From: Chiloscyllium plagiosum
Taxonomy: Eukaryota
DNA: 64,000 bases
NCBI RefSeq assembly: GCF_004010195.1
Contig: NC_057751.1
Span: forward strand, 17,063,901 to 17,127,900
Direction of reading: 5' to 3'
Positions 9,531 to 45,129 of this stretch are shown here, piece by piece. A program made the translations under genes and the position numbers. Below the pieces are notes generated by a model that saw only the letters and a program-made list of their open reading frames with translations, did no database searches and had not been told where the DNA came from. The first letter of the stretch is position 1; every line of letters begins with the position of its first letter.

Positions 9531-9580
9531 GGTTTCTGTGACCTCCACAGTCAAAGCACTGCGGTATCTCTTTCTCTCAC

Positions 9581-16327: not shown

Positions 16328-16407
16328 CTACTATTTGGAAAAATGAGAGGCAATCTTAATGAAACAGATGAATCCTTCAAGGAATTGACAGGGGGAGATG
16401 TGGAGAG

Positions 16408-16616
16408 TCGAGTGTGGGGCGCTGGAAAAGCACAGCAGGTCAGGCAGCATCCGGGGAGCAGAAGAATCAGCGTTTCAGGCGTAAGCCCTTCATCAGGATG
16501 AAGGGCTTACACCCAAAATGTCGACTCTCCTGCTCCTCAGATGCTGCCTGCCCTGCTGTGCTTTTCCAGCGCCAAACTCTCGACTCTCCAGCATCTGCAG
16601 TCCTCACTTTCTCCTA
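16408..16616. mobile_element. Palindromic Penelope-derived short element with hammerhead core, TSD-flanked
   Basis: Inverted arms; minus-strand CTGATGA-a-gggc-ttac-gcct-GAAAC; 14-bp TSD ggagatgtggagag (16394-16407 and 16617-16630). Confidence 0.8.
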
Positions 16617-17484
16617 GGAGATGTGGAGAGGCTGTTTCCCCTTGTGAGAGAGTCTAGGACCAGAGGGTGTACTCTCAAAGTAAGGGGTTACCCACTGAAG
16701 ACAGACATGAGGAGGAATTTCGTCTCTCCACGTGAACTGAATTGGTGGAATTCTTTATCGCTGAGGGTGGGTCATCAAGGCTGAGATAGATTTCTTTAGA
16801 AACAGGAAAGGCGGTGTATGAACAGAGGCTGCTTTCAGCTCAGTAGCTGAGTGGTCCTGGCAGAACACAAGTTGAGGGTCAGTGAGGAGCTTATCGCTCT
16901 GACACTCACCCCCTGCTTGCCGATCGCTGACAATTGAGGGGGGAGATTCACCCCGAGTCTCCTTCAAATTGACAAAGCAAGGAAAAGCCCAGAATGGGAG
17001 TTCAAAATCTCTCTCTTTTTCCAGAATGGTTAGAGAAAAAATAAACAGGCTCCCCGTTGTGTGGTCCCAAGTTCTGATAGCAGCCAGAGACGAAACAATT
17101 AACCCGGGAGGCGCCGTGTGAATTCAGAGAGTCTCCACACGATGCCAACAGCCTTGCAGATGTTGTGTCTCATCTGAGGCTTGAACAGAAATATTTTGCT
17201 TGGGATCACAATGTCCAAGGTTGTCGGTATCCAATCCCCCCACTGCCATCTCTCTCCCCCTGCTGGAGAATGAGGGACCCTTAAAGGCAGTGAGTTCCAC
17301 AGTCTGGGTGGAAACACTTTTTCCCACGCCCCCCTGCCCTTAAAGCTATGCTCCCTCTCTCCCCCAACTCCTCCAGGTCATTCACCCCTCCACCAAGGGG
17401 AAAAAGGTGCTTCCTGTCTACCTTATCGATACCCCTCATCCATCTCAATCGCCTCCCTTCTCTCAATCTCCTCTGCTCTCAGGA

Positions 17485-17527
<43 letters not shown>

Positions 17528-17558
17528 TGCGGCCATGTTTAAAAGTCTCCTATCAAGT

Positions 17559-18308
17559 GGAGAAAGTGAGGACTGCCGATGCTGGAGATCAGAGCAGAAA
17601 ATATGTTGCTGGAAAAGCGCAGCAGGTCAGGCAGCATCCAAAGNNNNNNNNNNNNNNNNNNNNNNNNNNNNNNNNNNNNNNNNNNNNNNNNNNNNNNNNN
17701 NNNNNNNNNNNNNNNNNNNNNNNNNNNNNNNNNNNNNNNNNNNNNNNNNNNNNNNNNNNNNNNNNNNNNNNNNNNNNNNNNNNNNNNNNNNNNNNNNNNN
17801 NNNNNNNNNNNNNNNNNNNNNNNNNNNNNNNNNNNNNNNNNNNNNNNNNNNNNNNNNNNNNNNNNNNNNNNNNNNNNNNNNNNNNNNNNNNNNNNNNNNN
17901 NNNNNNNNNNNNNNNNNNNNNNNNNNNNNNNNNNNNNNNNNNNNNNNNNNNNNNNNNNNNNNNNNNNNNNNNNNNNNNNNNNNGACAAGCAACATGAATT
18001 CGACTGGGACAACACTACTATTATAGGACAAGCCAAACAGAGAACAGCCAGGGAATTCCTAGAGGCATGGCACTCATCCACAAACTCCATCAACAAACAC
18101 ATCGACCTGGACCCAATATACCGGCCACTGCAGCAGACAGCTGGAACCAACAACCGGAAGGGGCAGATTCAAACCACTATAAATGCCGGAGGAAACGTCA
18201 CAGAAGCGGTTCACAGGAGGCTCCCAACCCCTGAGGATGTCACCTCGACAGGGGACGAAACATCTGCAACACACATTCCCAGCTCGGCGAGCAGAACCAC
18301 AACATCCC
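17559..18308 (+). mobile_element. Penelope-like fragment (GIY-YIG C-terminus plus hammerhead-bearing terminal repeat), gapped
   Basis: HEFDWDNTTIIGQAKQRTAREFLEAWHS...SIN; CTGAGGA-t-gtcacct-cgac-aggggac-GAAAC at 18231-18261; a hairpin-family arm lies left of the gap. Confidence 0.75.
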
Positions 18309-18379
18309 ATAATCCTGCTGCAGGTATTATCAGGGGAAGGTCGAACCGGGAACGGAATTCCTTTCCCTCTGCTCCTCAC

Positions 18380-18542
18380 CTGTCCCGTCCGGAGTGGACC
18401 TGACAAACGTCGGCAGCATTTTCACAGAGGACGTGGGGTTGGTGTCCTTCCTCAGTCCTTTCTTCATCCCGACCAGGAAGCGGTCCGAGATGTCGCGCAG
18501 GACGTCATCCGAGAGTCTCAAGTGGTACAGGTACCTGTCCAC
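18380..18542 (-). CDS. HK2: Hexokinase 2 exon 2 (VDRYLYHLRLSDD...VKMLPTFVRSTPDGT)
   Basis: Translation matches the HK2 N-half; ctgcag| acceptor and |gtgagg donor; 163 bp, the size of vertebrate HK exon 2. Confidence 0.96.
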
Positions 18543-18859
18543 CTGCAGAGAACGGAGAGAGTCGCGAGTCGGCACTGGAAGCAGAAAGGGAGCAGTCCCC
18601 ACCGGAAACAAAAGTTGGCAGCCGGAATTTATAAACTGTGTCGCCTCATTCTACACGTCCCCCCACAAGGGGGTAGATCATCCTCCTCCTAGCATTCACT
18701 CGGCCAGAGGCCGTCAGCATCTTATATATTTCCATAAAATCTCTACTCACTCTCCGCAATTTCAAAGGACACATAACCTTTCCCATTCCCCTGCCCATGA
18801 TAACGCCTAGAGGCAACAGAGTGAACTCACTTCTAATGCAACAATGTCCTTTACTGAAA

Positions 18860-19285
18860 TAGACAGAGAGAGAGAGAAATAGAACTGGAGAGAAAGAGAG
18901 AGAGAGAGAAACAGAAATAGAATGAAGTGAAAGAGAGAAAAGGAGAGTGAGTGAGAGACAAAGAGAGTGTGACAGAGTGACAGTGCGAGAGAGAATGTGA
19001 GACAGAGAATGAGACAGTGAGGGTGAGAGTGAAAGAGAGAGAGGCTGAGAGAGAGGGNNNNNGACAGAATCAGCAAGTGAGAGAGTAAGAGAGAGAGAGT
19101 GAGAGGGACAGTATGAGAGAGAGAGAGAAAGAGGCAGAGTGAGAGGTACAGGGAGAGAAACAAAGAGGAAGAGAGAGTGAGAGAGACAGTGTGAGAGAGA
19201 GAGCGAGAGAGATTGAGAGAGAAAGAGTGTGAGAGCGCGTGAGAAAGTGAGAGAGAGCATGAGAAAGAATGAAAGCGAGAGAGAC
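18860..19285. repeat. GA-rich low-complexity tract
   Basis: Degenerate (GA)n; similar tracts at 1-130 and 3017-3095. Confidence 0.9.
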
Positions 19286-20094
19286 ATAACACAGCATTTA
19301 TGTGGCACAAATATTACTTGCCACTTATCAGCCAATGTCTGGGCATTGTCCAGATCTCGTTGCAGTTGAACATGTACTGCTTCAGTATCTGAGGAGTCGC
19401 GAATGGTGCTGAACTTTGTGCGTTCACTGGCGCACATCCCCACTTCTGATCTTATGATGGAGGGCAGGTCTTTGATGAAGCAGCTGAAGGTGGTTGGGCC
19501 TTGGAAACTACCCTGAGGGACTCCTGCAGAGCTATAGTTTCCTTACTTAAAAACATACTTATCCCTGGAGGAACAACTGCAAAATATTCTACATTGACAT
19601 CTCATTGTTCGATGAGATCGTTTATATCATCTCGAGGAAGAGATGCAATGTCAAATGACCTTCCCCTGATGTCAGACCCACATTTCAAACCCCTTTTGTT
19701 CGGTATCAGTCTGCTAATTTTCTTGCAGGCTTTGCACACCTTTTGTGCGTATATTCACAACTGTAAGCAGTTCTAAACACGCAGTAACTCCCCTCCTGAC
19801 TCCCCCCCCAAAGCCTGTCCCCACTATCGACAAGGCCCAAGTCAGGAGGGTGTGAGGGAATACTCCACCCTTGCCCAGGATTGGGGGGGGGGCGGGGGGG
19901 CAGCCCCAACAACACTCGAAAAGCTTGACACCATCCAGAGACAAAGCAGCCTGTTGCTTGATCCACTCCCTCCACCCCTGACCCCATCAGTCGCAATGAT
20001 GTGCACCACCTACAAGACGCACTGCAGAGACCCACCAAGGCACCTTCCCAAATTCACGACCACTTCCATCTGGAAGGTCAACGGCAGCAGATAC

Positions 20095-21489: not shown

Positions 21490-22200
21490 CCCTCTGACGT
21501 CATCCGCCAGGACAATGGCGTGACGTCACAGCGGTGCCCCAAACCCGCCGCCCAGCCAACGGTGTGACGTAACACGGGACCACAAACTCCGCCCCTCGCT
21601 CTGGAATACGCCCGCCCAGGCGATGGTGTGACGCCACGCGCGGACCTCAATAACCCCGCCCCCTCGCTCAGGCGCCACCCGCCCAGACAAGGGTGTGACG
21701 CCACGCGCAGACACCCCCCCCCCCAATAAAAGTGCCCCCTCGCACAGGCGCCACCCGCTCAGACAATGGTGTGACATCACGCGCTTACCACCCAATAACC
21801 CCGCCCCCTCGCACAGGCGCCACCCGCTCAGACAATGGTGTGACATCACGCGTTTAACCCCACCCCTCCCTCTGGCGTCACCCGCCCAGAGAATGGTGTG
21901 ACGCCACGCGCAGATGTCCCCCACCCAAACACAGTCCCGCCCACTCGCACCGCCCTCCCGGACAATGGGGTTCCACCAAGCCTGGACCCAGACCACGCCC
22001 CCTCCGCTGTGGCACTGCCCACACAGAAAATTGTGTGACATCAAGCCGTTAGCTCCCACTCTGAGGTCACCCACTTGCCAAAAGCGTGACGTCACGCCGC
22101 CCCCGCTCTGCTAGCGGCATGACGTCAGAGCCCCGCCCCCTTGCCCGGACCCCGCCTCCTCTCGGAAACAGGAAAGTTGATTTCACTTCGGTCTGGGGGA
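21490..22200. promoter_or_regulatory. CpG-rich promoter/enhancer-like array of CRE and GC-box motifs
   Basis: Perfect TGACGTCA at 21495, 21521, 22087 and 22120; TGACGCCA/TGACATCA/TGACGTAA variants; many CCCGCCC boxes; degenerate ~69-bp tandem units. Confidence 0.55.
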
Positions 22201-22254
22201 GAGGCGGCACTGGGAGGTTGGCAGTGTGGTAGATGGGGGATGTCACAGGGGAGG

Positions 22255-25200
22255 GACCCTCACACACACCCTCACACATACCCTCATACACACACACACA
22301 CACCCTCACAGACCCCCTCACATACACACCCTCACAGACCCCCTCACACACACCCTCACAGACCCCCTCACACACACACCCTCACAGACCCCCTCACACA
22401 CACCCTCACAGACCCCCTCACACACACACCCTCACAGACCCCCTCACACACACCCTCACAGACCCCCTCACACACACACCCTCACAGACCCCCTCACACA
22501 CACCCTCACAGACCCCCTCACACACACACCCTCACAGACCCCCTCACACACACCCTCACAGACCCCCTCACACACACACCCTCACAGACCCCCTCACACA
22601 CACCCTCACAGACCCCCTCACACACACACCCTCACAGACCCCCTCACACACACCCTCACAGACCCCCTCACACACACACCCTCACAGACCCCCTCACACA
22701 CACCCTCACAGACCCCCTCACACACACACCCTCACAGACCCCCTCACACACACCCTCACAGACCCCCTCACACACACACCCTCACAGACCCCCTCACACA
22801 CACCCTCACAGACCCCCTCACACACACACCCTCACAGACCCCCTCACACACACCCTCACAGACCCCCTCACACACACACCCTCACAGACCCCCTCACACA
22901 CACCCTCACAGACCCCCTCACACACACACCCTCACAGACCCCCTCACACACACCCTCACAGACCCCCTCACACACACACCCTCACAGACCCCCTCACACA
23001 CACCCTCACAGACCCCCTCACACACACACCCTCACAGACCCCCTCACACACACCCTCACAGACCCCCTCACACACACACCCTCACAGACCCCCTCACACA
23101 CACCCTCACAGACCCCCTCACACACACACCCTCACAGACCCCCTCACACACACCCTCACAGACCCCCTCACACACACACCCTCACAGACCCCCTCACACA
23201 CACCCTCACAGACCCCCTCACACACACACCCTCACAGACCCCCTCACACACACCCTCACAGACCCCCTCACACACACACCCTCACAGACCCCCTCACACA
23301 CACCCTCACAGACCCCCTCACACACACACCCTCACAGACCCCCTCACACACACCCTCACAGACCCCCTCACACACACACCCTCACAGACCCCCTCACACA
23401 CACCCTCACAGACCCCCTCACACACACACCCTCACAGACCCCCTCACACACACCCTCACAGACCCCCTCACACACACACCCTCACAGACCCCCTCACACA
23501 CACCCTCACAGACCCCCTCACACACACACCCTCACAGACCCCCTCACACACACCCTCACAGACCCCCTCACACACACACCCTCACAGACCCCCTCACACA
23601 CACCCTCACAGACCCCCTCACACACACACCCTCACAGACCCCCTCACACACACCCTCACAGACCCCCTCACACACACACCCTCACAGACCCCCTCACACA
23701 CACCCTCACAGACCCCCTCACACACACACCCTCACAGACCCCCTCACACACACCCTCACAGACCCCCTCACACACACACCCTCACAGACCCCCTCACACA
23801 CACCCTCACAGACCCCCTCACACACACACCCTCACAGACCCCCTCACACACACCCTCACAGACCCCCTCACACACACACCCTCACAGACCCCCTCACACA
23901 CACCCTCACAGACCCCCTCACACACACACCCTCACAGACCCCCTCACACACACCCTCACAGACCCCCTCACACACACACCCTCACAGACCCCCTCACACA
24001 CACCCTCACAGACCCCCTCACACACACACCCTCACAGACCCCCTCACACACACCCTCACAGACCCCCTCACACACACACCCTCACAGACCCCCTCACACA
24101 CACCCTCACAGACCCCCTCACACACACACCCTCACAGACCCCCTCACACACACCCTCACAGACCCCCTCACACACACACCCTCACAGACCCCCTCACACA
24201 CACCCTCACAGACCCCCTCACACACACACCCTCACAGACCCCCTCACACACACCCTCACAGACCCCCTCACACACACACCCTCACAGACCCCCTCACACA
24301 CACCCTCACAGACCCCCTCACACACACACCCTCACAGACCCCCTCACACACACCCTCACAGACCCCCTCACACACACACCCTCACAGACCCCCTCACACA
24401 CACCCTCACAGACCCCCTCACACACACACCCTCACAGACCCCCTCACACACACCCTCACAGACCCCCTCACACACACACCCTCACAGACCCCCTCACACA
24501 CACCCTCACAGACCCCCTCACACACACACCCTCACAGACCCCCTCACACACACCCTCACAGACCCCCTCACACACACACCCTCACAGACCCCCTCACACA
24601 CACCCTCACAGACCCCCTCACACACACACCCTCACAGACCCCCTCACACACACCCTCACAGACCCCCTCACACACACACCCTCACAGACCCCCTCACACA
24701 CACCCTCACAGACCCCCTCACACACACACCCTCACAGACCCCCTCACACACACCCTCACAGACCCCCTCACACACACACCCTCACAGACCCCCTCACACA
24801 CACCCTCACAGACCCCCTCACACACACACCCTCACAGACCCCCTCACACACACCCTCACAGACCCCCTCACACACACACCCTCACAGACCCCCTCACACA
24901 CACCCTCACAGACCCCCTCACACACACACCCTCACAGACCCCCTCACACACACCCTCACAGACCCCCTCACACACACACCCTCACAGACCCCCTCACACA
25001 CACCCTCACAGACCCCCTCACACACACACCCTCACAGACCCCCTCACACACACCCTCACAGACCCCCTCACACACACACCCTCACAGACCCCCTCACACA
25101 CACCCTCACAGACCCCCTCACACACACACCCTCACAGACCCCCTCACACACACCCTCACAGACCCCCTCACACACACACCCTCACAGACCCCCTCACACA

Positions 25201-27270
25201 CACCCTCACAGACCCCCTCACACACACACCCTCACAGACCCCCTCACACACACCCTCACAGACCCCCTCACACACACACCCTCACAGACCCCCTCACACA
25301 CACCCTCACAGACCCCCTCACACACACACCCTCACAGACCCCCTCACACACACCCTCACAGACCCCCTCACACACACACCCTCACAGACCCCCTCACACA
25401 CACCCTCACAGACCCCCTCACACACACACCCTCACAGACCCCCTCACACACACCCTCACAGACCCCCTCACACACACACCCTCACAGACCCCCTCACACA
25501 CACCCTCACAGACCCCCTCACACACACACCCTCACAGACCCCCTCACACACACCCTCACAGACCCCCTCACACACACACCCTCACAGACCCCCTCACACA
25601 CACCCTCACAGACCCCCTCACACACACACCCTCACAGACCCCCTCACACACACCCTCACAGACCCCCTCACACACACACCCTCACAGACCCCCTCACACA
25701 CACCCTCACAGACCCCCTCACACACACACCCTCACAGACCCCCTCACACACACCCTCACAGACCCCCTCACACACACACCCTCACAGACCCCCTCACACA
25801 CACCCTCACAGACCCCCTCACACACACACCCTCACAGACCCCCTCACACACACCCTCACAGACCCCCTCACACACACACCCTCACAGACCCCCTCACACA
25901 CACCCTCACAGACCCCCTCACACACACACCCTCACAGACCCCCTCACACACACCCTCACAGACCCCCTCACACACACACCCTCACAGACCCCCTCACACA
26001 CACCCTCACAGACCCCCTCACACACACACCCTCACAGACCCCCTCACACACACCCTCACAGACCCCCTCACACACACACCCTCACAGACCCCCTCACACA
26101 CACCCTCACAGACCCCCTCACACACACACCCTCACAGACCCCCTCACACACACCCTCACAGACCCCCTCACACACACACCCTCACAGACCCCCTCACACA
26201 CACCCTCACAGACCCCCTCACACACACACCCTCACAGACCCCCTCACACACACCCTCACAGACCCCCTCACACACACACCCTCACAGACCCCCTCACACA
26301 CACCCTCACAGACCCCCTCACACACACACCCTCACAGACCCCCTCACACACACCCTCACAGACCCCCTCACACACACACCCTCACAGACCCCCTCACACA
26401 CACCCTCACAGACCCCCTCACACACACACCCTCACAGACCCCCTCACACACACCCTCACAGACCCCCTCACACACACACCCTCACAGACCCCCTCACACA
26501 CACCCTCACAGACCCCCTCACACACACACCCTCACAGACCCCCTCACACACACCCTCACAGACCCCCTCACACACACACCCTCACAGACCCCCTCACACA
26601 CACCCTCACAGACCCCCTCACACACACACCCTCACAGACCCCCTCACACACACCCTCACAGACCCCCTCACACACACACCCTCACAGACCCCCTCACACA
26701 CACCCTCACAGACCCCCTCACACACACACCCTCACAGACCCCCTCACACACACCCTCACAGACCCCCTCACACACACACCCTCACAGACCCCCTCACACA
26801 CACCCTCACAGACCCCCTCACACACACACCCTCACAGACCCCCTCACACACACCCTCACAGACCCCCTCACACACACACCCTCACAGACCCCCTCACACA
26901 CACCCTCACAGACCCCCTCACACACACACCCTCACAGACCCCCTCACACACACCCTCACAGACCCCCTCACACACACACCCTCACAGACCCCCTCACACA
27001 CACCCTCACAGACCCCCTCACACACACACCCTCACAGACCCCCTCACACACACCCTCACAGACCCCCTCACACACACACCCTCACAGACCCCCTCACACA
27101 CACCCTCACAGACCCCCTCACACACACACCCTCACAGACCCCCTCACACACACCCTCACAGACCCCCTCACACACACACCCTCACAGACCCCCTCACACA
27201 CACCCTCACAGACCCCCTCACACACACACCCTCACAGACCCCCTCACACACACCCTCACAGACCCCCTCT
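22255..27270. repeat. 50-bp minisatellite, about 99 identical copies
   Basis: Unit ctcacagaccccctcacacacaccctcacagaccccctcacacacacacc (24+26-bp subunits) repeated with no visible variant from 22331. Confidence 0.97.
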
Positions 27271-27567
27271 CGCTCACATATACTCTGGTTAGCGCTCATG
27301 CACTCTCTTGCACACACACAAATACAGACAGACTCACTTATGCACACATTCTCACAAATACACACACTCAGTCACGCACATACCCCCGCGCACACCATAG
27401 TTACACACAAATGCACACACTCTCACACATTCACAGATACAGACACACACTCACAGATCACACACATGCAGATACATATAGACACCAGCTACACATTAAC
27501 AGACAGATACACACTCCCGCAGACACACACAAACAGATATACACACAGGCACACACTGAGACAGAAA

Positions 27568-29723
27568 TGGGCGGCACAGTGGCTAGCACCGCTGCCTCAC
27601 AGCGCCAGGGACCTGGGTTCGATTCCAGCCTCGGGTGACTGTCTGTGTGGAGTTTGCACATTCTCCCTGTGTCTGCATGGGTTTCCTCTGGGTGCTCTGG
27701 TTTCCTCCCACAGTCCAAAGATATGCAGGTTAGGGTGGATTGGCCGTGGGAAATTAACCATAGTGCTCATGGATGTGCAGGTTAGGGTGAATTGGCCGTG
27801 CTAAATTACCCATAGTGCTCATGGATGTGCAGGTTTGCTAAATTACCCATAGTGCTCATGGATGTGCAGGTTAGGGTGAATTGGCAGAGCTAAATTACCC
27901 ATAGTGCTCATGGATGTGCAGGTTAGGGTGGAATGGCCATGCTAAATTACCCATAGTGCTCAGGAATATGCAGGTTCGGGTGGATGGCCACAGTAAATTA
28001 CCCATAGTGCTCAGGGATGTGCAGGTTAGGGTGGATTGGCCATGCTAAATTACCCATAGTGCTCATGTATGTGCAGGTTAGGGTGGAATGGCCATGCTAA
28101 ATTACCCATAGTGCTCAGGGATATGCAGGTTAGGGTGGATGGCCACAGTAAATTACCCATAGTGCTCAGGGATGTGCAGGTTAGGGTGGATTGGCCGTCC
28201 TAAATTACCCATAGTGCTCATGGATGTACAGGTTAGGGTGGAATGGCCATGCTAAATTACCCATAGTGCTCAGGGATATGCAGGTTAGGGTGGATGGCCA
28301 CAGTAAATTACCCATAGTGCTCAGGGATGTGCAGGTTAGGGTGGATTGGCCAACGTAACTTACCCATAGTGCTTAGGGATGTGCAGGTTAGGGTGGAATG
28401 GCCATGCTAAATTACCCATAGTGCTCAGGGATATGCAGGTTAGGGTGAATTGGCCATGCTAAATTACCCATAGTGCTCAGGGATGTGCAGGTTAGGGTGG
28501 ATTGGCCATGATAAATTGCCCCAAGTGCTCAGGGATGTGCAGGTTAGGATGGATTGGCCACGCTAAATTACCCATAGTGCTCAGGGAAGTGCAGGTTAGG
28601 GGGAATGGCCATGCTAAATTACCCATAGTGCTCAGGGATATGCAGGTTAGGGTGAATTGGCCATGCTAAATTACCCATAGTGCTCAGGGATGTGCAGGTT
28701 AGGGTGGATTGGCCAACGTAAATTACCCATAGTGCTCAGGGATATGCAGGTTAGGGTGGATGGCCACAGTAAATTACCCATAGTGTTCAGGGTTGTGGAG
28801 GTTAGAGTGGATTGACCATGCTAAATTACCCATAGTGCTCAGGGATGTGCAGGTTAGGGTGGATTGACCAATGTAAATTACGCATAGTGCTCAGGGATGT
28901 GCAGGTTAGGGTGGATTGGCCATGCTAATTTACCCATAGTGCTCAGGGATGTGCAGCACAGGGTGAATTGGCCATGCTAAATAACCCACAGTGCTCAGGG
29001 ATGTGCAGGTTAGGGTGGATTGGCCATGCTAAATTACCCATAGTGCTCAGGGTGGATTGGCCACGCTAAATTATCCATCGTGTTCAGGGATGTGGAGGTT
29101 AGGATGGATTGACTATGCTAAATTATCCATAGTGCTCAGGGTTGTGCAGGGTTAGAGTGGATTGGCCATGCTAAATTACCCATGGTGCTCAGGGATGTGC
29201 AGGTCAGGGTGAATTGGCCGTGCTAAATTACCCATTGTGCTCAGGGTGGATTGGCCATGCTAAATTACCCACAGTGCTCAGGGATGTGCAGGTTAGGGTG
29301 GATTGGCCATGCTAATTTACCCATAGTGCTCAGGGATGTGCAGGTTAGGGTGGATTGGCCANNNNNNNNNNNNNNNNNNNNNNNNNNNNNNNNNNNNNNN
29401 NNNNNNNNNNNNNNNNNNNNNNNNNNNNNNNNNNNNNNNNNNNNNNNNNNNNNNNNNNNNNNNNNNNNNNNNNNNNNNNNNNNNNNNNNNNNNNNNNNNN
29501 NNNNNNNNNNNNNNNNNNNTCAGGGTGGATTGGCCATGCTAAATTACCCACAGTGCTCAGGGATGTGCAGGTTAGGGTAGATTGGCCATGCTAAATTACC
29601 CATAATGTTAGATGCATTAGTCAAAGGGAAATGGGTCTGGGTGGGTTACCCTTCGGAGGGTCGGTGTGGACAGGTTGGGCCGAAGGGCCCGTTTCCACAC
29701 TGTAGGGAATCTAATCTAATCTA
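27568..29723 (+). mobile_element. HE1-like SINE inflated to about 2.15 kb by a 52-bp minisatellite
   Basis: Intact head at 27568, about 1.9 kb of variant 52-bp units (one gap), intact tail ending (tctaa)n. Confidence 0.9.
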
Positions 29724-33688: not shown

Positions 33689-33694
33689 AATAAA
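33689..33694 (+). terminator. Candidate polyadenylation signal AATAAA
   Basis: gaatgAATAAAgaagtg at the end of the putative 3'UTR. Confidence 0.55.
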
Positions 33695-34023
33695 GAAGTG
33701 CTGATTCAGGGTCTCAAGTCTATTCATTAGCAATTTTTTTTTAACTTTGCAAACAGAAAATTATTGAAAAATACAATCAATAACAAATATCAGTATAATA
33801 TGTAAAGAAAAAACCCCCAAATTACAATACAGCGACTGTCTACTAACGACTAACCTACTCTATAATACAAAACAAACCCTAACACTGTGCAGAGCACCAC
33901 CAATAAATAACTAAATAACAAATAGATTAAAAAAAGAAAAGCAAAAAAAAAAACCACAGAATACAGAACAGCTGTGCTCGGTGCAAAGCTCCCAAACAAA
34001 GGAATGGGAGCGTTGTACATATA

Positions 34024-34217
34024 GCTGAGAATGTGTTGCTGGAAAAGCGCAGCAGGTCAGGCAGCATCCAAGGAGCAGGAGAATCGACGTTTCGGGCATA
34101 AGCCCTTCTTCAGGAATGATATTCTCCTGTTCCCTGGATGCTGCCTGACCTGCTGCGCTTTTCCAGCAACACATTTTCAGCTCTGATCTCCAGCATCTGC
34201 AGCCCTCACTTTCTCCT
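34024..34217. mobile_element. Palindromic hammerhead-bearing short element inside the L1 3' region
   Basis: Inverted arms; TSD cgttgta(c/t)atata at 34011-34023 and 34218-34230. Confidence 0.85.
34082..34117 (-). ncRNA. Minimal type I hammerhead ribozyme motif
   Basis: auuc-CUGAAGA-a-GGGC-uuau-GCCC-GAAA-C-GUC-gauu; predicted cleavage after GUC (34086/34085). Confidence 0.7.
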
Positions 34218-37200
34218 CGTTGTATATATACCCGTATTAACTCAGGAGACCCCTTCCAGGGCTCGGTAAACCTAACCATCCTGGTTAAACCAACGCCCTA
34301 GTTAAGATAACTGACAAATCTATATCCAAATAACTCAAGTAGGGTTGCCATGTCTTATAAAAATTGTCTGTTGTGTTGGTGCACCATGTTTGTGAAAAAG
34401 TCCAAGGGAATGTGCTCCTTAATTAATTTCTGCCATCCCAGCAAACCCAGCGCGTTCTCAGACGCCCAGTTCATCAGAATATTCTTCCGAGCACAATATG
34501 CAAGAATATTAACTCGTTTCTCCCCATGCCGGTCTAAAGATGGTAAATTCGGTAGACCTAAGAGGAGAGATATCGGGTCTACTTTGACTTCAGTCTTCAA
34601 TACCCTCCCCTGTCTCTCCCGCCACAGCGCTCCCAATAAACATGGAGCCTGTGGCATGTCCAGAAACAATGGGTAAGAGTACCGACATTTATTTTACATT
34701 TGGGGCACACTGAAGATGCTCCGTTTTTAAAACTTCACCAGACGGTCCGGTGCCAGATGAACCCTGTGCAGAACTTTTAACTGCATAGCACGTCCTTTTA
34801 CAGATTGAGATCTTTCTAGCATTTTCCCATATATTCTCCCATGATGCAGAAGAGATCTCCCATCCTAGCTCTTGCTCCCAGACCTCACATGACCGGTTAA
34901 TATCCTGCCAGGCCCTGCCACCCAGCAGGCGTTAGAAGGCACTAACCGAAAGGGTGCTTGTGGAACGTAGCTACAGCCTCTCTGTATCGGGCTTATAGGG
35001 CTTAGTGAGAAGCTTAGTCTTCTTCGGGATGATATCCCTAACCTGAAAAACACAGAAAAGATCTCTGCTGGGCAACCCGTATTTGTGGCTCATTTGCTCA
35101 AAAGACATCATAACCTCCCCCTCAAACAGGTCTCCCAAACTAGAAACTCCTCTCGCTGCCCATAGTTTGAACCCTGAGTCCATCATCCCTGGTCGGAACC
35201 CTGGCATGCCAACTATAGGTGTAAGTGGCAAAGTCTTGGATCAGCAACCCTCACTCTGACGCATCGCCCTCCATGCCTTGACTGTACTAATGACAATGGG
35301 GTTCTGGCAATGGTTCATATCTGTCCTCATCTTATCCATGAACAACAGGTTAATAAGAGGCCTCGATATCCAGCCATATTGAGTTTGGACGTTACCTACC
35401 CAATCGCAGTCGAAGGACAGCAGGGAACTCAATTGATACCTCCTAATGTCTGGGAAATCAACTCCTCCCCCTCCTTGAGGCAACTGCAATTTAGTAGGTT
35501 TGATGAGGGGCCGCCCACGATGCCAGGCAAAGGAACCAAACCACCCCATAAGCTTCCACAGCGTTGACCTGGGAAACATTATAGGGAGCATACACATGGG
35601 ATAAAGCAAACGAGGAAGAACATTCATATTAATGAGAGACATTCGGCCCAGCCATGAAATTGGAAGATCCTCCCATCTCTGGAGATTGTCGAGCAAGTGA
35701 GCAAAGTTAGTCCGAAATAACAGATCAAACTTGGGGGTCATAAAAAATGCCTAGGTATCGGAACCCTGCCCGTGACCACTTAAAAGGGAACGTAGAGCCA
35801 CCTTCAACTTCTGACACATCCTTAAGGTTCCTCAAAGGCATAGTCTCCGATTTTGCAACGTTGATCCTGAAATAGCCCCAAATGAATTAATACTTTGTAT
35901 CAACTGGGGTACGGAGGTCATCGGGTTCGACAAAAACAGAAGGACAACATCCGCCTACGGTGTAATCTTGTGTGCCCTCGATCCCACTTCCGGAGCGGTT
36001 ATGTGGACATTCTGACGAATGGCCTCTGCCAGCGGCTCTATCACCAACGTAAACAACAACGGTGAGAGGGGGCAGCCTTGCTGACTACCCCTACCAATCC
36101 TAAAATTCCAAGACTTCAGCCCGTTGGTGATGACCGCGGCCAGAGGGTGGCGATATAAAACCTCCACCCACCTAGCAATGACCCCACCCAACCCAAACTG
36201 TTCTAAGACATAAAAAGGATACGGTCATTCCACCCGGTCAAATGCTTTCTCTGCATCTAAGGAAATCACCAACCCCTGAATCGATTGTTGCTGACAAACT
36301 TGGACCACATTCAGCAACCTTCTCATATTATTAGAGGACCTACAGTCCCTTATCAAGCCTGTCTAGTCCTCTTTAATAATATGGGGCAACACCTTTTCCA
36401 ATCTCAGCGCCAGGATCTTGGACAGAATCTTGAAATCTGAATTTAATAGAGAGATGGGCCTGTATGAGGCACAATCCTCAGGAACCTTCCCCTTCCTAAG
36501 AATTGGGGAAATATTAGCTTCCCTCAAAGATGGTGGTAGGTGTTTATGCATATAGGAGTGATTGTACATCTCCAACATCGGCCCTGCTAGAATCCCTATA
36601 AACTCCTTATAAAACTCACCTGGAAGACCATCAGGGCCAGGTGCTTTCTCATTCTGAAGTTGCCTAGCTGCCTCCCGTATTTCCTGAACTGTCAAGGGGG
36701 CATTAAGGAGAGAGGCCTGTTCCAAGGTTAACCCTGGGAGGTCCTGGTTCTTGAAAATTGCCTCCATTTTAGTCTTCCTGTCCTTGCAGCCTTCAGTCCG
36801 ATACAATTCAGAGTAACAGCTCCAAAAAGCCTCATTAATCTTTTTAGCATCGTATGTAAAGACCCCAGCACTGTCCCTGATTGCAGTAATGGATTGGGGA
36901 GCACGCTTTCTCCTAGTCAGGTATGCTAAATACTTGCCTGGTCTATTCCCATACTCGAACAGCCTTTGTCGAGCAAAAGCAAGTTCTTTCTTTGCGTTTT
37001 GTGTCAGTATTGAACTCAAGGCAGCCTGGAGGGCTGAGATCTGCTGTAGCTTAGTCACCGTAGGCCGCGCAAAATGTGCCGCCTCGGCAGCTTTCAACCA
37101 CGTCTCAAGTAGACGCTGCTGTCGTTTCCGGCTAGCCGAATAGGGAATAGCTAATCTCCTGGCAAAGGCCTTAGCAGTCTCCCATAGCATAGACGGACTA

Positions 37201-39688
37201 CTAGCCGTGCCTGAGGTGATAGTCAAGAATTCCTGAAACTCCTTCAAAAAGTATTCCACAAATTTGGAATCCTTCAGGAGAAAAGGGTCCAAACATCAGT
37301 GCCGCAAACCTAGCCCCTCACTCTTGGCCTTAACCTCCAACTATACCACTGCGTGATCAGAGATAGCTATATTCCCAATTTTACAACCCATAATCAAATC
37401 CAGAAGGGCCGAGGGAGCCAGAAAGAGGTCAATCCTCATGTGGCATTTATGTGGGTTTGAAAAAAAGGTGAAGTCCCTGCCGGTAGGGTGAAGACATCTC
37501 CAAATATCCACCAGCCCCAACTCCTCGCATAAGTCAACCACCTGCTTGGCCTGCGAAGAGATAGTTGGGGGCCAAGAGGCATCCTGTCCACTGTTGGATC
37601 CAAAAGCCAGTTAAAATCCCTCCCTGTAATAATGTGCTCTGTTCCAAAGGCACTTAGAGAAAGCACTAATCAAAAATTTGAGGGGATGCGCTGGAGGACA
37701 GTAGACATTTAAAATGTTATATTCCTCCCCATGTATCAGGGCTATAAGTATCACAAAACATCCCTGCCCATCTTTCACCTGCTCTAATAATGGGAACGGA
37801 AGATTTTTCTGGATAAGTACAGCCACTCCCCGACTTTTAGTAGTAAAGGATGGAAAGAATACCCTGTCATAACCCCCCTGTTGTAACTTTAGGTGTAACC
37901 CATCATTGAGGTGGGTTTCCAGCAACAGAGCAATATCAATCTTTTCCCTCTCAAAGCGAGAAAACACTTTTTTTTCCTTTTAACAGGGAAACGACTTCCC
38001 TTGATGTTCCAGGTGCACCATTTACTAGGTCCACTTAGCCATATCCCCTTTCAGAGACCCTTGAACCCCTGGGAGGGAGAACCCTGCTTACAAAACGCTG
38101 AGCACAAGTAAATAAAGACTCATTGAGCTGACAAATTATGTGTACAAAAACTACTCTTTCATAACTACAAACAGCTATTACTACCAAATAACGACAAAGA
38201 AAGCCAACTATAAAACCTTGGATGGAAGACTCTTCCCCCTGCCCATAGGGGGCACTCACCCTACCCAACCCCTCTTTCACAGCTCCTTCAAACCCGGACT
38301 GTGCCCCAGGCTTAGCCCAGAAAAATAAAGGAGACGATCATTAAATCAACAGAAAGAAAGACCCAAATCCAAACCACCCATCCCTGGCTTCATGTCACCC
38401 CTACTTGTGACTAAAAGAGAAACAGAAAAAAGGGGAGAGACAACAAAGAGCATTCACAAGATTTCCCGTCAGAAAGTCCAGTCATTAAAAAAAAGGAACA
38501 ACTTATTCGAAGTTTTTTTACCCGCTTTCCAAAAAGGAAATTATTAGAGAGTAAGAAAGGAATAAAAAACATGGGGAAAGAAGGAAAAGAGAATGAACAT
38601 TAACCATATTCTTCAGGCCAGTTCGTCTATTTTAAAGTGTCTACAAAGTTTGTAGCCTTATCTGCCGAGTCAAATGTATAAACTGAGTCCTCGTAGCTGA
38701 AACGGAGTATTGCGGGGTATCTCATGGACTACTGGATGCCCAGGTTCCTCAGCCTCTTTTTAACGTCGTCAAAGGACTTCCTCCTTCGAATTACAGCTGC
38801 AGAGAAATCCTGGAAAGACATGATTTTTGACCCCCTTGTACAGCAGCGCCTGCGGATCTTTTCCCAGGGATCTGGAAGCTTCCACGACTCTTCGCTTGTC
38901 CTTATATGAGTGGAGGTGCACTAGGACCGGGCGGGGGTGCTGCACCGGCCCTGACCTGTGCACTGTAACCCGATACGCCCTCTCAATCTGCAGCCTGCTG
39001 GACTTGACGTGAAGGCCCGAAAACTTCGCTAGCAACGAAGCTGACTGGCTGCTCACCTTCCTCACCTTCAGGGAGCCCGCCAATTCGGAGATTAGGTCCT
39101 CCGACCTCGGTTTTCGAGGTCGTCTCGCTCGGCCCGCACCTCTCGCTCCAGCAGCTGGATCCGACTGGATGAGGAACTCCATCGCAGCTTCCGAGGCCTC
39201 AGTTCGACCCTCCACCTCCTCCAGCCTCTCCCCGAGGCCCTGGGTCTCCTGCTCGTACCTCTGCGGCATGGATGCGATAGGTTGGACCTGGGCACGAATC
39301 TCCCCACGGGTCTCCCCAATCGCAGCCCCGACCTTCGAGGTAAGTCTCGCCATCGCCGCAGCCAATTCCTGTGAGTCTGTCAGGTCCCCCGGGAAGTTCA
39401 GGAGAGGCTGCTGTCGCTGCAGTCTCTGGTGTGCTGCAGGGGAGTGTCCTCCCTGCTGCTGTTTGCTCACTCCTTTTCCCTTTGGCATTCCTTCCCAAAT
39501 ATTAGTCTGTCAGGTCCCCCGGGAAGTTCAGGAGAGGCTGCTGTCTGGTGTCCTCCCTGCTGCTGTTTGCTCATTCCTTTTCCCTTTGGCATTCCTTCCC
39601 AAATATTAACAAATATGTGTTTTGTAAGGTTTTAAAACTAATAATTCCACCACACACAAAAAAAAGCCTTGGCTGTTCGGCAGAGCTG

Positions 39689-39859
39689 AAAATGTGTTGC
39701 TGGAAAAGTGCTGGAGCAGGAGAATCGACGTTTCGGGCATGAGCCCTTCTTCAGGAATGATATTCTCCTGCTCCATGGATGCTGCCTGACCTGCTGCGCT
39801 TTTCCAGCAACACATTTTCAGCTCTGATCTCCAGCATCTGCAGTCCTCACTTTCTCCTA
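39689..39859. mobile_element. Palindromic hammerhead-bearing short element inside the L1 5'UTR
   Basis: Same family and same hairpin junction as the 34024 copy; minus-strand CUGAAGA-a-GGGC-ucau-GCCC-GAAA-C-GUC at 39727-39754; direct repeat ggcagagctg at 39679-39688 and 39860-39869. Confidence 0.82.
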
Positions 39860-39961
39860 GGCAGAGCTGTCCTCAGAGTTCTACAGAAAGGCCCCCATCT
39901 TGCCGACCGCACCCCCCCCCCTTGTGTTTAATGTGATGTGGAGGGGCCTGTGTTGGACAAC

Positions 39962-40580
39962 GTTGAAAATCACAACAGGTTATTGTCCATCAGGTTTAAG
40001 TGGAAGCATTAGCTTTCGGAGCGCTGCTCCTCCAACAGGTAGCTGTGGAGTAGGACCATAAGACACAGAATTTATCGCAAAAGATTAGTGTCAGGCATGA
40101 AATGATATATTGAACAAACCTAGACTGCTGTTAAATCCAACATCTTTTAGAATGGGTTGCAGCCTTTGGTTCATTTATATGAAAATCCCAGCACTTCTTT
40201 TAAGTCACATTCTCGAGATAGCTTAAGGTTTTATTTTAACCAAAAACTTAAGTTACCTCAGCCCATTGTCTGAGCTGAGATGTCACCTTTTTTTTTTAAA
40301 TAAAACCTTAAGCTATCTCGAGAATGTGACTTAAAAGAAGTTCTGGGATTTTCATATAAATGAACTGAAACCTGCAAACCCATTCAAAAGATGAAAGACT
40401 TTCGCAGCAATCTAGATTTGTACAATATATCATTTCAGTTGCATGGCACTGTAACCTTTTGCAATAAATTCTGTGTCTTATTCTGTTCCACAACTACCTG
40501 ATGAAGGAGCAGCGCTCGAAAACTTAATGTTTCCAAATAAACCTGTTGGACTATAACCTGGAGCAGTGTGATTTTTAACT
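39962..40580. mobile_element. About 620-bp foldback element with a hammerhead core in each arm
   Basis: Long inverted repeat centred near 40270; plus-strand CTGATGA-a-ggagc-agc-gctc-GAAA at 40498-40521 and a degenerate mirror copy at about 40010-40040. Confidence 0.75.
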
Positions 40581-41299
40581 CTGCCCCCCACCCCCCTCTG
40601 CTGGCCTAACCATGCCACTGCATAAGCAGCCAATTTATTTCTGGCAGCGAGCACCAGAAATCTCTCACCGATCAACCAGTCCTCCAGGGAGAGTGGATCA
40701 ATCTCCCAACATATTGATCACCCAGTCCTCCAGGTGTTTCTGCATTGACGTCCGATCACATCGATGGGCCAGTCCTCCGGGGGGGGGGGATTAATAGCTG
40801 CTGCTCCTCGGATGCTGCCCGAACTGCTGTGCTCTTCCAGCACCACGAATCCAAAATCTGGTTTCCAGCATCTGCAGTCATTGTTTTTACCGGGATGGGT
40901 TAATACCCCATCACAAGTGGATGATGGTGTGCCTTTAACGGGTCATAGTGAGATTCCACGTAAAGGGGTAACAGAATGTACAAAGTCACAGTGGGTCACA
41001 CAGCTCAACACTTCCCACCCAACACTTTGATCTTTTTAACCCTGAGAGTTACATCCAGCTCCTCCTTAAAATCATTGAATGTTTTACACCTGACCACTTG
41101 CAGTGGCACTGAATTCCACATTCAACCCCGTAATCTTCAACCCTTCCCCACTCCTGGTCATCAGCAACATCCTTCCTGCATTCACCCTTCGCAACAAGAC
41201 CCATCTGCAGCCTGAGACCTTACCATCAAAGCATTTACCTGTTGGAAATGTGACAACAGCGAGAAGAATCTGAAAGGAAAGGTTAACAAATGTATTTGG

Positions 41300-43798
41300 T
41301 TAACAGATAAATCTGAGTAAATGGATTTGCAAGCATTTCTTTAAGCTGCTAGTCTGGGTCACGGTATAAATTGCCGTGTTCATGCAGCAACTGAGGAGCT
41401 GCAGCATAAAACCCAATTCCTGCAGATCAGTGGACAGGTGCAGAGTTAGAAGAATGCAGCGCAGTACAGGCCCTTCGGCCCTCATCATACATGCTGGCCA
41501 CCCGCCAGTCTACAGAGAAAACCATATGCAATGACCATAAGAGGATAAAATTGGCTGAGAGGAGGAACGGCTGAGAGGAGGAACGGCAAGACTTTCTTTG
41601 ACTCTCCATCTCTTGATCTCTGGGAGCCTTCTCACTGCTCTGAACCCGGAGTCTCCTATGGGCTCTACTGGTCACTAAAATGTGTCTGACCGTGAAACAT
41701 TAAGGAGCAATATCAGGACAAATGGAACACATGGATTTAAAGCGATATAGAGGAGCTCAATTGTCCCATTGACTCCACTGACCAGCCGATGTTACCAGAC
41801 AAAACCAAGGGAAGTTACCTATTCGATAATAACCCCAAAACACGAAATACCAGAATATATCTTTTACACAATTTGATTGCAGACATTGTTGCCAGCACCA
41901 CAGCCGCCGTTTTCTCATTGCAATATCGACTTTTCAGCTTCTGGCAACAAATGGCCACAAATCGATCAAAGCTGAAAGCAACGGTGAACCAGACGGAGCA
42001 GTCGTTGACTGCGTATACTAGGACAGAGTGGATATTACATGCGTAGAGAGACATCAGGAAATACATTTTATAAGAAATCGCCACATGTCTCAATATCAGA
42101 TCAACAAATAATGACAGACAGATCTGCAATGGCCATAGCCAGCAGGTAATGAGTGATACATCTTGACAGCCCACAGTTTCTGCAAAGCACGATGAAAATT
42201 GTCATTGAGTTAGCTGAAAGGAAGGAAAAAGCAAAACATTAGACATTGGTCAATGGGAGAAGACATTAGTTTGATTGAAAAAACTATTGAGGTTTTCAAA
42301 TGTACACACTACAGAAATGATTACATTTGAATTACAAAATAACCAGTCTGAACTATTTTGAAACATGAATGCAAATGTCAGGGAGGCACTCGCTCCTCAA
42401 ACTGGAAGTTACACGATACCAAGTTGTAGCCCAAACTGTTTATTTGCAATCATAAGCTTTTAGAGTGCTGCCATTTTGCCCACTTAACCTGTTGAAGAAT
42501 TAGCTCTCCAAAAGCTTGTGGCTTCAGATAAACCGTTGGAGTGTAACCTGTATGACTTCTGGCGTTGTCCATTCCAGTCCCAGAACCACGCATCCACATC
42601 ATCACTCCTCATACCAACAGGTAAATATGTATGAAGTTGCCATCGTGAGACTGAAACATCACTTATCAGTCACTAAAACACAAACGTTATTGGAAATGGA
42701 TGGCCTTTTTTTTGTTCCAAAATTAGATTCATTCACGTTTGTGTCTGTGTGTTGGTGTGTGAGAGAACAGAGAATTAGAAAGGGATGAGGGTCTGTGCTC
42801 ACAAAGAATCGGCAAGGGATTTGGAGAAAATGGGATTAACAGTGGAGCCGAGAGGTATTGGGCTTGGGAGCAACTGGAATCCAAGATTCACAATGGAACA
42901 GGGAGTGACAGAGAGGATGAGGTCATTGAGGACCATAGATTGATGCGGGTGCCAGGAGTAATGGGGGAACTGGAAGTGGCTGGCGGGGGGGGGGGGGGGG
43001 TGGCGTTAGAACAAAGCTGCAATTGCCAGGAGATCATGAAGTTACAACTTAGTTGGCAGTGATTGGGAAGTAGAGAGTGAAAGAGCAGTTTGCAGTGACA
43101 GTTGAATAGGAATACTCAGCTATGGTACTCAGCGTCAGGGAGGATGTAAGGGATGCAGGAAGGAGTTAAAAGGAAGTGTGGAGCAGCAGAGGATTATTTT
43201 GTGAGACAGGAGCGTGCAGACTCAGAAAAAGCTACCTCCCTTGAATTCTCATCAATAAGTTCTCTCAAACAAGAGGCAATGCGACACACAGATTTTGTTG
43301 GTGGGAGATTTATGAGCGAAACAAGGAAGAATGAAAAGAAAATGAGGGAAGTGACAATCCATTAAGGACAAAATGGAAAGAACAAGATGTTGAGTTAAGA
43401 CTTCAAACTCTCAGACATACAATTAAGACCCCTGAATTTTCACATCCGAAAAACTTTTTCATGTTTTTTCATGCTATGACAACAAGCAGACATTCTCTAA
43501 GTTTCGTGTCATGGGTTTAATATAGTCAGGGGATGGGGTGGGGGAAGAGTTGAAAAATCACTGAGACTCAATCGCAACAATACTAGCAGGGAGAGTGCCA
43601 GAACAAACTGATCAGGGAAACACTGCGGTTCATCAACAGCTGTGTGGCAGACTTACCAGTGACTCCAACAAAAGCCATGAAGGGATAGGAAAAGTACTTG
43701 ATAAGGAAAATCAAATGTGTGTGCCAACCGCCTGACCCAGGCCACGAAATAAGATAGTAAAGGGACCAGGATAATCCCCTATCCCATTATTGGAGCAT
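41300..43798 (-). pseudogene. Two-exon class A GPCR pseudogene (GPR139/GPR142-like)
   Basis: Exon 1 at 43798-43657 (ATG, in-frame TAA at codon 4, ...YPFMAFVGVT|gtaagt); exon 2 from 42213 (ttcag|, NCGLSRCITHYLLAMAIADL, frameshift, SVWFTVAFSFDRFVAICC, LQLLSCCMNTAIY). Confidence 0.8.
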
Positions 43799-44305
43799 TT
43801 CAATCTGTTGTTCTCAGATTTGGATCTCTGATTTCCCACTCTTTGGTGCTGCAAATCCCTGTCAGTGTTGAAGGTGACGCTCTGGGATAAGATGCTGAAA
43901 ACCGTCTTTTATTCACGGAAGAGGGGATGTGGACAGCTCAGACCTAAATGTTGATCAGAATGCATAACAGCTGCTTCTCCCGAAGTGCATGAACATTCGC
44001 AGCATGCAAAAAGACCGTTTGACTCATCTGTGAGCCAACGATGCCCCCTGTCGGGCAGAAAGTGAATATTGATACATTCCGAAGAGAACCTTTTCTCTCT
44101 CTGTCTCTGCCTCTCCCTCGTTTCTCTGCATGAATGCTTACGCTGTGTCCGAAAATGTGCTGCCGTAACTTTACGGCAACTAAGTGTAAGCTCAACCACC
44201 TCAAATTAATTGGAATTATGCTCTGTCTCTCATTGAAACCAGCAGCACATGTATCCATTGCTTCAATGTCAGGCTTGAGCTTGGTTGAGCTGTACTCCCT
44301 TGGAG

Positions 44306-44488
44306 GAGAAAGTGAGGTCTGCAGATGCTGGAGATCAGAGCTGAAAATGTGTTGCTGGAAAAGCGCAGCAGGTCAGGCAGCATCCAGGGAACAGGGCCTG
44401 ATGAAGGGCTTATGCCCGAAACATCGATTCTCCTCTTCCCTGGATGCTGCCTGACCTGCTGCACTTTTCCAGCAACACATTTTCAGCT
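44306..44488. mobile_element. Palindromic hammerhead-bearing short element, TSD-flanked
   Basis: Plus-strand CTGATGA-a-gggc-ttat-gccc-GAAAC at 44398-44422; 16-bp TSD ctgtactcccttggag (44290-44305 and 44489-44504). Confidence 0.85.
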
Positions 44489-45129
44489 CTGTACTCCCTT
44501 GGAGAACCATTTACCATATATATGCTCAGGAGCACCCGGTGAATATAATGCAAGATTGACACAAGCAGCGATGAGGGATGTGGGGAGTAGGAAGAGAGAG
44601 ACAGGGACAGGGGTTCTGTCCTGATTGTTTTCAAGATCGATAAACTGAAACGCTACTGTGACAGACGTCCACTACAGGCACACCCACTTCAACCATTAAA
44701 TGAGTTGCTTCTTTCTCTGAAAGAAACTTGTCCATTTATTATGGGAATTCAGCGGTACTGAATATGCTGCAAACTTGATAGTTCATAATTTTTAGATTTG
44801 CTATTTGGTTTGTGTCCTGATGAGCCACTGATCATATTCATAGGAGGTTGACAGTGCACTCATAGCAATGAATACCACTTCCTTCATAATTTTACATGTT
44901 GTGATAAGACCTATCCCATTCTTTGAAATTCCAATGAGTATTGTCTCAGCTATTTGGTCTGTCCTCATAAGCCAACTCCATGTCAACCTAGTGAACCTTT
45001 TCCACTCCCATCCAGTGCCGTTACGTCATTTCTCAAGTAAGGATACCAAACCTACACACAAGGTTCCGGTTATGGGATCATCGGCATCCTGTCCAGCTGC
45101 AATGTGAATTCCAAGTGTTGAAACTCCCT

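Follow-up and report, generated by a model that had tools for sequence, protein, structure and literature searches.

Hairpin inserts in the Chiloscyllium plagiosum genome are head-to-head end pieces of an abundant Penelope-like element and may arise by two primings on the element's RNA

Introduction

The 64,000-nucleotide stretch of Chiloscyllium plagiosum DNA analyzed here (the window) holds four short inserts that fold into long hairpins, and the question they raise is whether such a palindrome is a mobile unit in its own right or a piece of a larger element, and how it is built. A sequence-only reading had taken them for a foldback family of their own, non-autonomous, ribozyme-armed, mobile as a palindrome and inserted by the reverse transcriptase (RT) and GIY-YIG endonuclease (EN) of a Penelope-like element (PLE). 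That interpretation is partly supported. The inserts consist of end pieces, joined head to head, of a PLE with very many copies. The same end also follows RT and GIY-YIG frames at other genomic loci, and insertion by PLE RT/GIY-YIG is supported, but the arms belong to the end of the autonomous element itself and not to a separate family.

Hairpin inserts in the window

The four insertions (c1 to c4, Table 1) are confirmed in position, hairpin fold and one-sided tail. They measure 170–210 bp; the ~190–210 bp given in the reading fails for c3, which has only ~170 bp because one of its arms lacks ~33 bp. The flanking duplications vary in length within the 10–16 bp that it had reported; at c3 and c4, microhomology makes them overlap with the ends of the element. 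Copy c1 is the oldest, with inter-arm differences at 13/86 sites and a second, decayed hammerhead copy in its opposite arm. A hammerhead motif was claimed for each copy and is present in all four, although intact only in c2 and c3; it is also these two that have the GUC noted after the motif in two copies, c1 having GCU and c4 AUC. A 479-nt inverted repeat at 8050–9008 proved to be an N-gap artefact. A Pfam scan of 20 of the 94 window ORFs returned three RT fragments and two hexokinase pieces, and in these ORFs neither GIY-YIG nor the parent element was found.

Table 1. Copies of the PLE end in the window, with their left target duplications and hammerhead motifs (positions are those of the window).
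Feature	Position	Strand	Description
c1	16408..16614	+	Inverted tail-less arm and tail-bearing arm of PLE end
c1 left target duplication	16394..16407	+	14 bp, exact; right copy 16617-16630
c1 hammerhead motif	16469..16496	-	Decayed; GCU in place of GUC
c2	34024..34216	+	Hairpin copy; arms differ at two subfamily-marking sites
c2 left target duplication	34011..34023	+	13 bp, one mismatch; right copy 34218-34230
c2 predicted minimal type I hammerhead	34086..34113	-	Core intact, extra A after A9, 4-bp stem II, GUC
c3	39689..39857	+	Tail-less arm internally deleted; centre junction same as c2
c3 left target duplication	39679..39688	+	10 bp; right copy 39860-39869
c3 predicted minimal hammerhead	39727..39754	-	Core intact, GUC
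c4	44305..44488	-	Tail at left end, i.e. tail-bearing arm on minus strand
c4 left target duplication	44290..44305	+	16 bp; right copy 44489-44504
c4 hammerhead motif	44398..44425	+	AUC triplet; stem I 5' strand mostly gone at junction
Fifth copy	17559..17643	-	Tail-bearing arm running into N gap; absent from the sequence-only reading

The parent Penelope-like element

Elsewhere in the genome the hairpin end sits ~330 nt behind RT and GIY-YIG frames. When DNA of the endonuclease end is followed downstream, 12 of 30 loci have a hammerhead after 171–222 nt, and six of these 12 also have the tail ~100 nt further on. The parent has the order of an EN+ PLE, RT and then a C-terminal GIY-YIG endonuclease, on Pfam scores just below the curated cut-offs (RVT_1 at E 1.5e-6 and GIY-YIG at E 3.4e-4 in the frames of locus L119); the L118 frames gave no Pfam match. 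Two Cys are visible between the GIY/YIG-type motifs of L119, and the translations of L119, L118 and L114 contain a Cys-rich linker between RT and EN, a putative Zn-finger-like motif of the kind that defines the Neptune/Nematis clade according to PMC8557442.

Other features expected of EN+ PLEs are likewise present. Copies show an inverted end copy with a one-sided 30–40 bp tail and a target duplication, and the element's 5' part falls within the end repeat, with a shared continuation past the tail in five of 30 loci (L194, L203, L205, L211 and L218); an open frame lies beyond this continuation, and partial tandems occur, e.g. at L274. Locus L061, an insert of 3.7 kb, shares the inverted ends and is flanked by a duplication of 13 bp. 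The copies of the parent that we met are broken or gapped, with no intact full-length copy seen, and two candidates of 3.6–3.8 kb for the full element were set aside, their interiors being N gaps. Inverted end, tail and minimal hammerhead together are an already published PLE insertion form, and the family is ordinary as an element.

Copy number and structure of the copies

In 3.56 Gb of genome a 33-nt hammerhead pattern has 18,568 exact matches and a 32-nt tail pattern 64,502, and the reversed control of each gave 0; the patterns are therefore not due to chance, and the very high copy number expected from the window is borne out. Copy structure was recorded for 84 tail-anchored copies in the first 4 Mb of one contig, 6/90 having been excluded (one duplicate and five with N at the junction). 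An adjacent inverted arm is present in 47 of the 84 and absent from 37; 35 of the 47 have a 9–17 bp duplication, and target duplications are mostly 13–17 bp. The copies have two fixed outer ends, one being the tail end and the other lying ~35 nt inside it (the outer ends of inverted arms fall mostly at −32 to −43, arm positions being counted from the tail end), and these ends are the same in inserts that range from ~120 bp to 3.7 kb.

The hammerhead motif

By its core boxes, bulged base, stem II and UH triplet the motif is a predicted minimal type I hammerhead of the PLE type, as had been recognized from the window, and it is intact in 29/89 copies. Stem II is constant and its loop varies among subfamilies; the covariation proposed as a check was not found, as stem II shows no compensatory changes among family members. 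Nor did an Rfam scan match any hammerhead model at E ≤ 1, and its nine matches were sub-threshold miRNA models, six on the hairpins, two on a tandem repeat near 31.5 kb and one more on c2. The reading had put a lack of preferential conservation of CUGANGA/GAAA first among the results that would refute it; the GAAA/U core in fact decays at the same rate as the neighbouring sequence (7/503 versus 71/4909), the figures for the CUGA part (13/120 and 47/880) being inflated by junction-edge misalignment. Tail-bearing arms that start within 3 nt of the cleavage site number only 2/84. We infer that the template is uncleaved and that the hammerhead is a passenger, in which case hammerhead counts in such genomes would mostly be counts of dead passengers.

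A fixed 5' stop

The common inner limit of the arms is not the cleavage site but an initiator-like A, 129 nt from the tail end and four bases before the hammerhead core. Among the 84 tail-anchored copies the stop rate per base is 0.097 at −125 to −133 versus 0.002–0.005 at −30 to −114, with aligner-derived 5' ends uncertain by 2–4 nt; two of the five N-junction exclusions pass −133, and including them gives 42/50 instead of 42/48. Genome-wide, a non-element base directly precedes the −129 A in 7,220 of 25,788 exact arms (28%), so that at least 28% end there, versus at most 7.7% at a control position five bases downstream (−124). Solos, which have no partner arm, end on the −129 A as well. Of the arms that go past −130, most continue further (22/30 extend beyond −140), and a second, long population therefore exists.

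The base before the −129 A is G in 58/100 arms versus 18/100 at the −124 control (Fisher p 7e-9), counted by hand among the first 100 matches listed in each set. Of 17 Gs inspected, four are untemplated, ten have a template in the target or in the opposite arm, and three are unexplained, and microhomology choice could therefore explain part of the excess. In L1 a 5' untemplated G has been taken as cap copying (PMC9341517). A splice junction at −129 was rejected, since AG does not precede it, and the search for a TATA box gave only a weak T-rich match near −30. Four RNA runs were compared with L274: one single-cell run yielded 1,889 reads, 91% of them continuing into unlike sequence and with no pile of molecule starts, and is uninformative on expression and start site, and another gave no reads. 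The loose ends of the single-cell run, at 1639, 1384 and 1425, coincide with the −129, inner and tail boundaries, and so do the loose ends of two contig sets. We met no earlier account of the fixed 5' end in the literature searched, which left most subscription papers and bioRxiv supplements outside. The −129 stop and its preceding G suggest run-off copies of an uncleaved, capped RNA that would be primed separately at two nicks.

Alternative origins of the hairpins

A non-autonomous palindromic retroposon, transcribed, self-cleaving and reinserted as a whole hairpin with PLE proteins, should leave copies that share one master structure including the centre, and instead at least 75 types, including 64 singletons, are present among the 92 centres. 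The complex centre of c2 and c3 does occur exactly twice in the genome, as does that of L142 and L148, yet each is confined to two neighbouring copies (separated by 5.6 kb and 114 kb) and is not dispersed; this local sharing also speaks against the mechanism proposed below. Two further centre types recur five times each, but these are simple microhomology joins, one of which spans two subfamilies. One centre (L013) contains a copy of its own flank, and rare alleles occur in one arm 87 times and in both arms 0 times. A G/C arm mismatch that appeared common among c4-like matches reflected query bias: exact matches to the C allele number 38, and among 11 insertions with both arms that allele is discordant in ten and concordant in one, as for later mutation. 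The intact hammerheads would suit self-cleavage, but the core is not preferentially conserved and the ends lie away from the cleavage site. The palindrome as such is not the spreading unit, and this model, largely refuted, is very unlikely. A DNA-transposon MITE with terminal inverted repeats, the alternative named in the sequence-only reading, would account for small size, inverted arms, high copy number and the lack of an ORF; it is ruled out to a negligible probability by duplications that vary from 9 to 17 bp, by asymmetric ends with a one-sided tail, by the 37 copies that have no adjacent inverted arm and by the continuation of the sequence into RT/GIY-YIG frames.

Ordinary 5' truncation of a PLE with self-primed fold-back would require RT pausing or a preferred microhomology join as the cause of the −129 pile-up, and trimming of the centres after insertion. 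Self-priming on an antisense template was suggested for PLE inverted ends in PMC3846280, their origin being called unresolved in PMC8557442, and it predicts the observed agreement between arms: subfamily sites are discordant in 12/140 (background 86/2348) versus 42% when shuffled, and at site −83 the arms agree in 37/37. This agreement led us to reject arms from unrelated RNAs, but it is equally expected if both arms come from a single-source RNA. That most inspected Gs are templated also fits this explanation. Against it stand the absence of a G excess at −124, the position of the stop 5' of all hammerhead helices and the partnerless solos, which end at the same base. The tail-less arm is the longer one, by >5 nt further 5', in 18/43 copies (the tail arm in 7/43), and a single fold-back cDNA therefore cannot be the source unless centres were deleted later. 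We consider this explanation unlikely, if less so than a mobile palindrome.

Proposed mechanism

We propose instead that the two head-to-head PLE-end copies of a hairpin are probably made afresh with every insertion, as short cDNAs that run off the capped 5' end of the element's RNA. The endonuclease would nick both strands 13–17 nt apart, and the 3' end of each nick would serve as primer for RT on the sense RNA, at the tail site for one and at the inner site for the other. Both cDNAs would extend to the first base of the RNA, the initiator-like A just before the hammerhead, and would then be joined by microhomology with the loss of a few to 90 nt. Single priming would give solos of 95 or 128 nt and double priming hairpins of 120–230 nt; the long copies would come from long transcripts primed at their downstream end. 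The template RNA would be uncleaved and capped, with the hammerhead carried along. An anole PLE studied in vitro nicks both strands and extends them, and its RT starts at two internal sites bounding the tail on unprocessed RNA (PMC11167929).

On a wider and more tentative view, which may well not hold, the stubs, tens of thousands in number, resemble strong-stop products: each would copy the first, capped 130 nt of the Penelope RNA, with two primings. As a stub would then have its own start site at its beginning, solos may in turn be transcribed and copied again, as a SINE-like unit with a hammerhead that sometimes lands close to its source. If twin priming is correct, it fixes the polarity of the template (sense, uncleaved) and accounts for inverted PLE ends with no need of fold-back. 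The value of the family is thus mechanistic, in that >60,000 natural products have ends that point to two primings on a capped, uncleaved sense template, and one base, the −129 A, can be named as the putative RNA start.

Comparison with known systems

The insertion unit of EN+ PLEs is described as a pLTR with an adjacent inverted 5'-truncated copy, a 30–40 bp tail and a target duplication (PMC3846280, PMC8557442). The inserts here share with it the inverted head-to-head ends, the one-sided tail of ~35 nt, the target duplication, a hammerhead in the end repeat, a parent with RT and then GIY-YIG, and partial tandems (L274). They differ in that most are the last 95–130 nt with one stop base, where truncation is variable in those accounts, and in duplications of mostly 13–17 bp versus 8–10 bp in the rotifer examples given there. 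With the minimal hammerheads of metazoan PLEs (PMC4209133) the predicted motif shares the type I core, an unpaired base 5' of stem II, a short stem I, a palindromic ACGU replacing helix III and the occurrence mostly as single motifs, some on opposite strands 100–700 bp apart; stem II has 4 bp here versus 7–8 bp in Schistosoma. The main text of that paper does not mention sharks.

Poseidon of Anolis carolinensis (PMC11167929) likewise has two RT start sites bounding the tail and nicking and extension of both strands, which we infer here, and in it too hammerhead cleavage is not needed and no RNA ends lie at the cleavage site. The available text of that paper does not address cDNA end positions or a cap G, and its supplementary text files gave no match. 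The Anolis element belongs to the Poseidon clade and its ORF starts in stem II, whereas the parent here has a Cys-rich RT-EN linker as in Neptune/Nematis. Animal non-LTR retrozymes (PMC7229834; bioRxiv 10.64898/2026.07.22.740005) are also small, non-coding, PLE-related and equipped with a type I hammerhead, but they are described as head-to-tail tandems with a unit between cleavage sites and a circular RNA, whereas the inserts here are dispersed, either as solos or as pairs joined head to head, and their ends lie off the cleavage site.

The inserts and their parent element

All four hairpin inserts reported in the sequence-only reading (c1 to c4) are real in the window, as are their tails and target duplications, the latter measuring 14, 13 (one mismatch), 10, and 16 bp, respectively. 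Of the hammerheads that had been assigned to them, those of c2 and c3 are intact, whereas c1 and c4 carry decayed versions, and the proposed check with the Rfam hammerhead model gave no match at E ≤ 1 in the window scan. Across the 3.56 Gb genome, the exact hammerhead pattern is matched 18,568 times and the exact tail pattern 64,502 times, with no control matches for either, and these counts are lower bounds on copy number.

Features of the window, with strand where assigned
Feature	Position in window	Strand	Remark
Inserts c1, c2, c3, c4	16408, 34024, 39689, 44306 (starts)		
Complex centre of c2, c3	34086-34130, 39727-39770		
Fifth copy	17559-17643		adjoins N gap
Older, diverged relatives of the same PLE end sequence	635-678, 40798-40879		
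Second hammerhead family	39960-40570		~600-bp head-to-head structure
Its central hairpin	40185-40349		165 bp
Its hammerhead motif	40498	+	
Third family	17984-18306, 49878-50200		two inverted copies, 94%
Its hammerhead-like motif	18231, 49953	+, -	
Further hammerhead-like motif	31431	-	
Hexokinase_1 Pfam matches	6499-7107, 9554-10315	-	likely host hexokinase exons
Long C/A-rich tandem array	22160-27800		units of 12-14 nt

The origin from a Penelope-like element (PLE) that had been suggested for the inserts was right. Upstream of the hammerhead, longer copies contain ~330 nt of non-coding sequence and then broken RT and GIY-YIG frames; those of one genomic locus, L119, match RVT_1 and GIY-YIG, both just below the cut-offs, and those of another, L118, gave no match in the same domain search. 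A Cys-rich linker between the two domains appears to fit Neptune/Nematis as PMC8557442 defines that clade. The best named homologs are from rays and sharks (67-77% identity), making a cartilaginous fish the likely host, and three ray gene models labelled as host enzymes or kinases (P0017, P0051, and P0072) contain this RT at 68-69% identity, reflecting either exon capture or annotation error. Past the tail the element runs on into an open frame, and it also forms partial tandems. The insert at locus L061 is 3.7 kb long, with the inverted ends seen in the hairpins, a 13-bp duplication, and a gapped interior.

Origin of the hairpins

A tail-anchored sample drawn from the initial 4 Mb of contig C1 comprised 90 loci, of which 84 were usable; an inverted arm adjoins in 47 (122-449 bp overall) and is absent in 37. 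The centre could be delimited in 92 of 107 hairpins, all sets pooled, and is of at least 75 types, of which 64 are singletons; both types that recur five times are simple microhomology joins. The two arms of a hairpin agree at subfamily sites, and rare alleles are common to both arms in no case versus one arm in 87. Given arms that have no rare allele in common and so many centre types, the hairpin is probably made at insertion and does not spread as a unit, and the separate non-autonomous foldback family postulated earlier is not borne out. At locus L013 (G000:C34:13865489-13865684), 17 nt of the neighbouring target flank are repeated within the hairpin centre, which points to template jumping at insertion.

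Two pairs of hairpins with common centres count against construction at insertion. The complex centre of c2 and c3 occurs exactly twice genome-wide, 5.6 kb apart, and that of loci L142 and L148 exactly twice, 114 kb apart. The flanks of c2 and c3 are unrelated, the inserts differ at 4 of 146 nt, and the arms of c2 belong to two subfamilies; at L142, which carries two tails, the duplication is missing. For both pairs, a gap-filling error in the assembly, local gene conversion, or local recopying may be responsible. Elsewhere, the same solo stub, a single arm with no partner, is found twice with the same flanks, 3.7 kb apart (L229 and L230; G000:C1:3888225 and 3891909), representing either a local duplication or an assembly artefact.

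The intact hammerhead motif is kept in 29 of 89 copies, and divergence at the GAAA/U core positions is 1.4% versus 1.45% at downstream sites, so that selection on the ribozyme is not apparent in the stubs. Tail-bearing arms end ≤3 nt from the cleavage site in 2 of 84 loci. The role that had been given to the ribozyme was wrong.

Where the arms stop

Counted as bases upstream of the tail end, hammerhead C3 lies at -125, the cleavage site between -98 and -97, and an initiator-like A at -129. For tail-bearing arms in the 84 loci, the rate of ending per base is 0.002-0.005 between -30 and -114, 0.025 between -115 and -124, and 0.097 between -125 and -133, and 42 of the 48 that reach -125 end at -125 to -133 (42 of 50 including two dropped long copies). 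The longer arm of the hairpin ends between -119 and -133 in 40 of 43. Genome-wide, the base before the -129 A in exact arms is non-C in 7,220 and C in 18,568 (28% non-C), versus at most 7.7% for the same ratio at the -124 control, and 13,815 exact arms reach -133. Because 22 of 30 arms passing -130 extend beyond -140, a long population coexists. The sequence around the -129 A, TCATTCC, agrees with the initiator consensus.

By hand count of the first 100 matches listed, the -129 A is preceded by G in 58, A in 28, and T in 14, versus 18, 48, and 34 at the -124 control (p 7e-9 for G), and the G expected from the flanks is 28%. Of 17 Gs inspected in 29 loci, 4 are untemplated, 10 have a template in the target or the arm, and 3 are unexplained. 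If the cDNA carried a C derived from the cap, both an untemplated G and pairing with a target G would result; for L1, PMC9341517 interprets a G of this kind as a product of cap copying. In D. virilis, Penelope transcripts begin inside the end repeat, where an initiator is combined with an internal promoter (PMC2377424).

Proposed mechanism and relation to known elements

By analogy with an anole PLE, the outer ends of the hairpin probably mark two RT start sites. The in vitro account of that element in PMC11167929 describes two RT start sites, nicking and extension of both strands, and hammerhead cleavage that is not needed. Both cDNAs would run off the capped 5' end of the element RNA, which we infer to start at -129, and would then be joined head to head. 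Among 43 hairpins, the longer arm is the tail-less one in 18 and the tail-bearing one in 7, and the two are within 5 nt in 18. Since a self-folding cDNA cannot supply a tail that it lacks, two primings on RNA of a single source fit best, unless the centres were trimmed later. The anatomy, the link to the parent element, and the statistics of the ends are observed directly, and the start site, the cap, and the twin priming are inferred.

Inverted ends, tail, and parent link together are the published PLE form. The inserts in the window are a real instance of an already known kind of PLE insertion, and the fixed, G-preceded 5' end would be a modest, testable addition to that known form.
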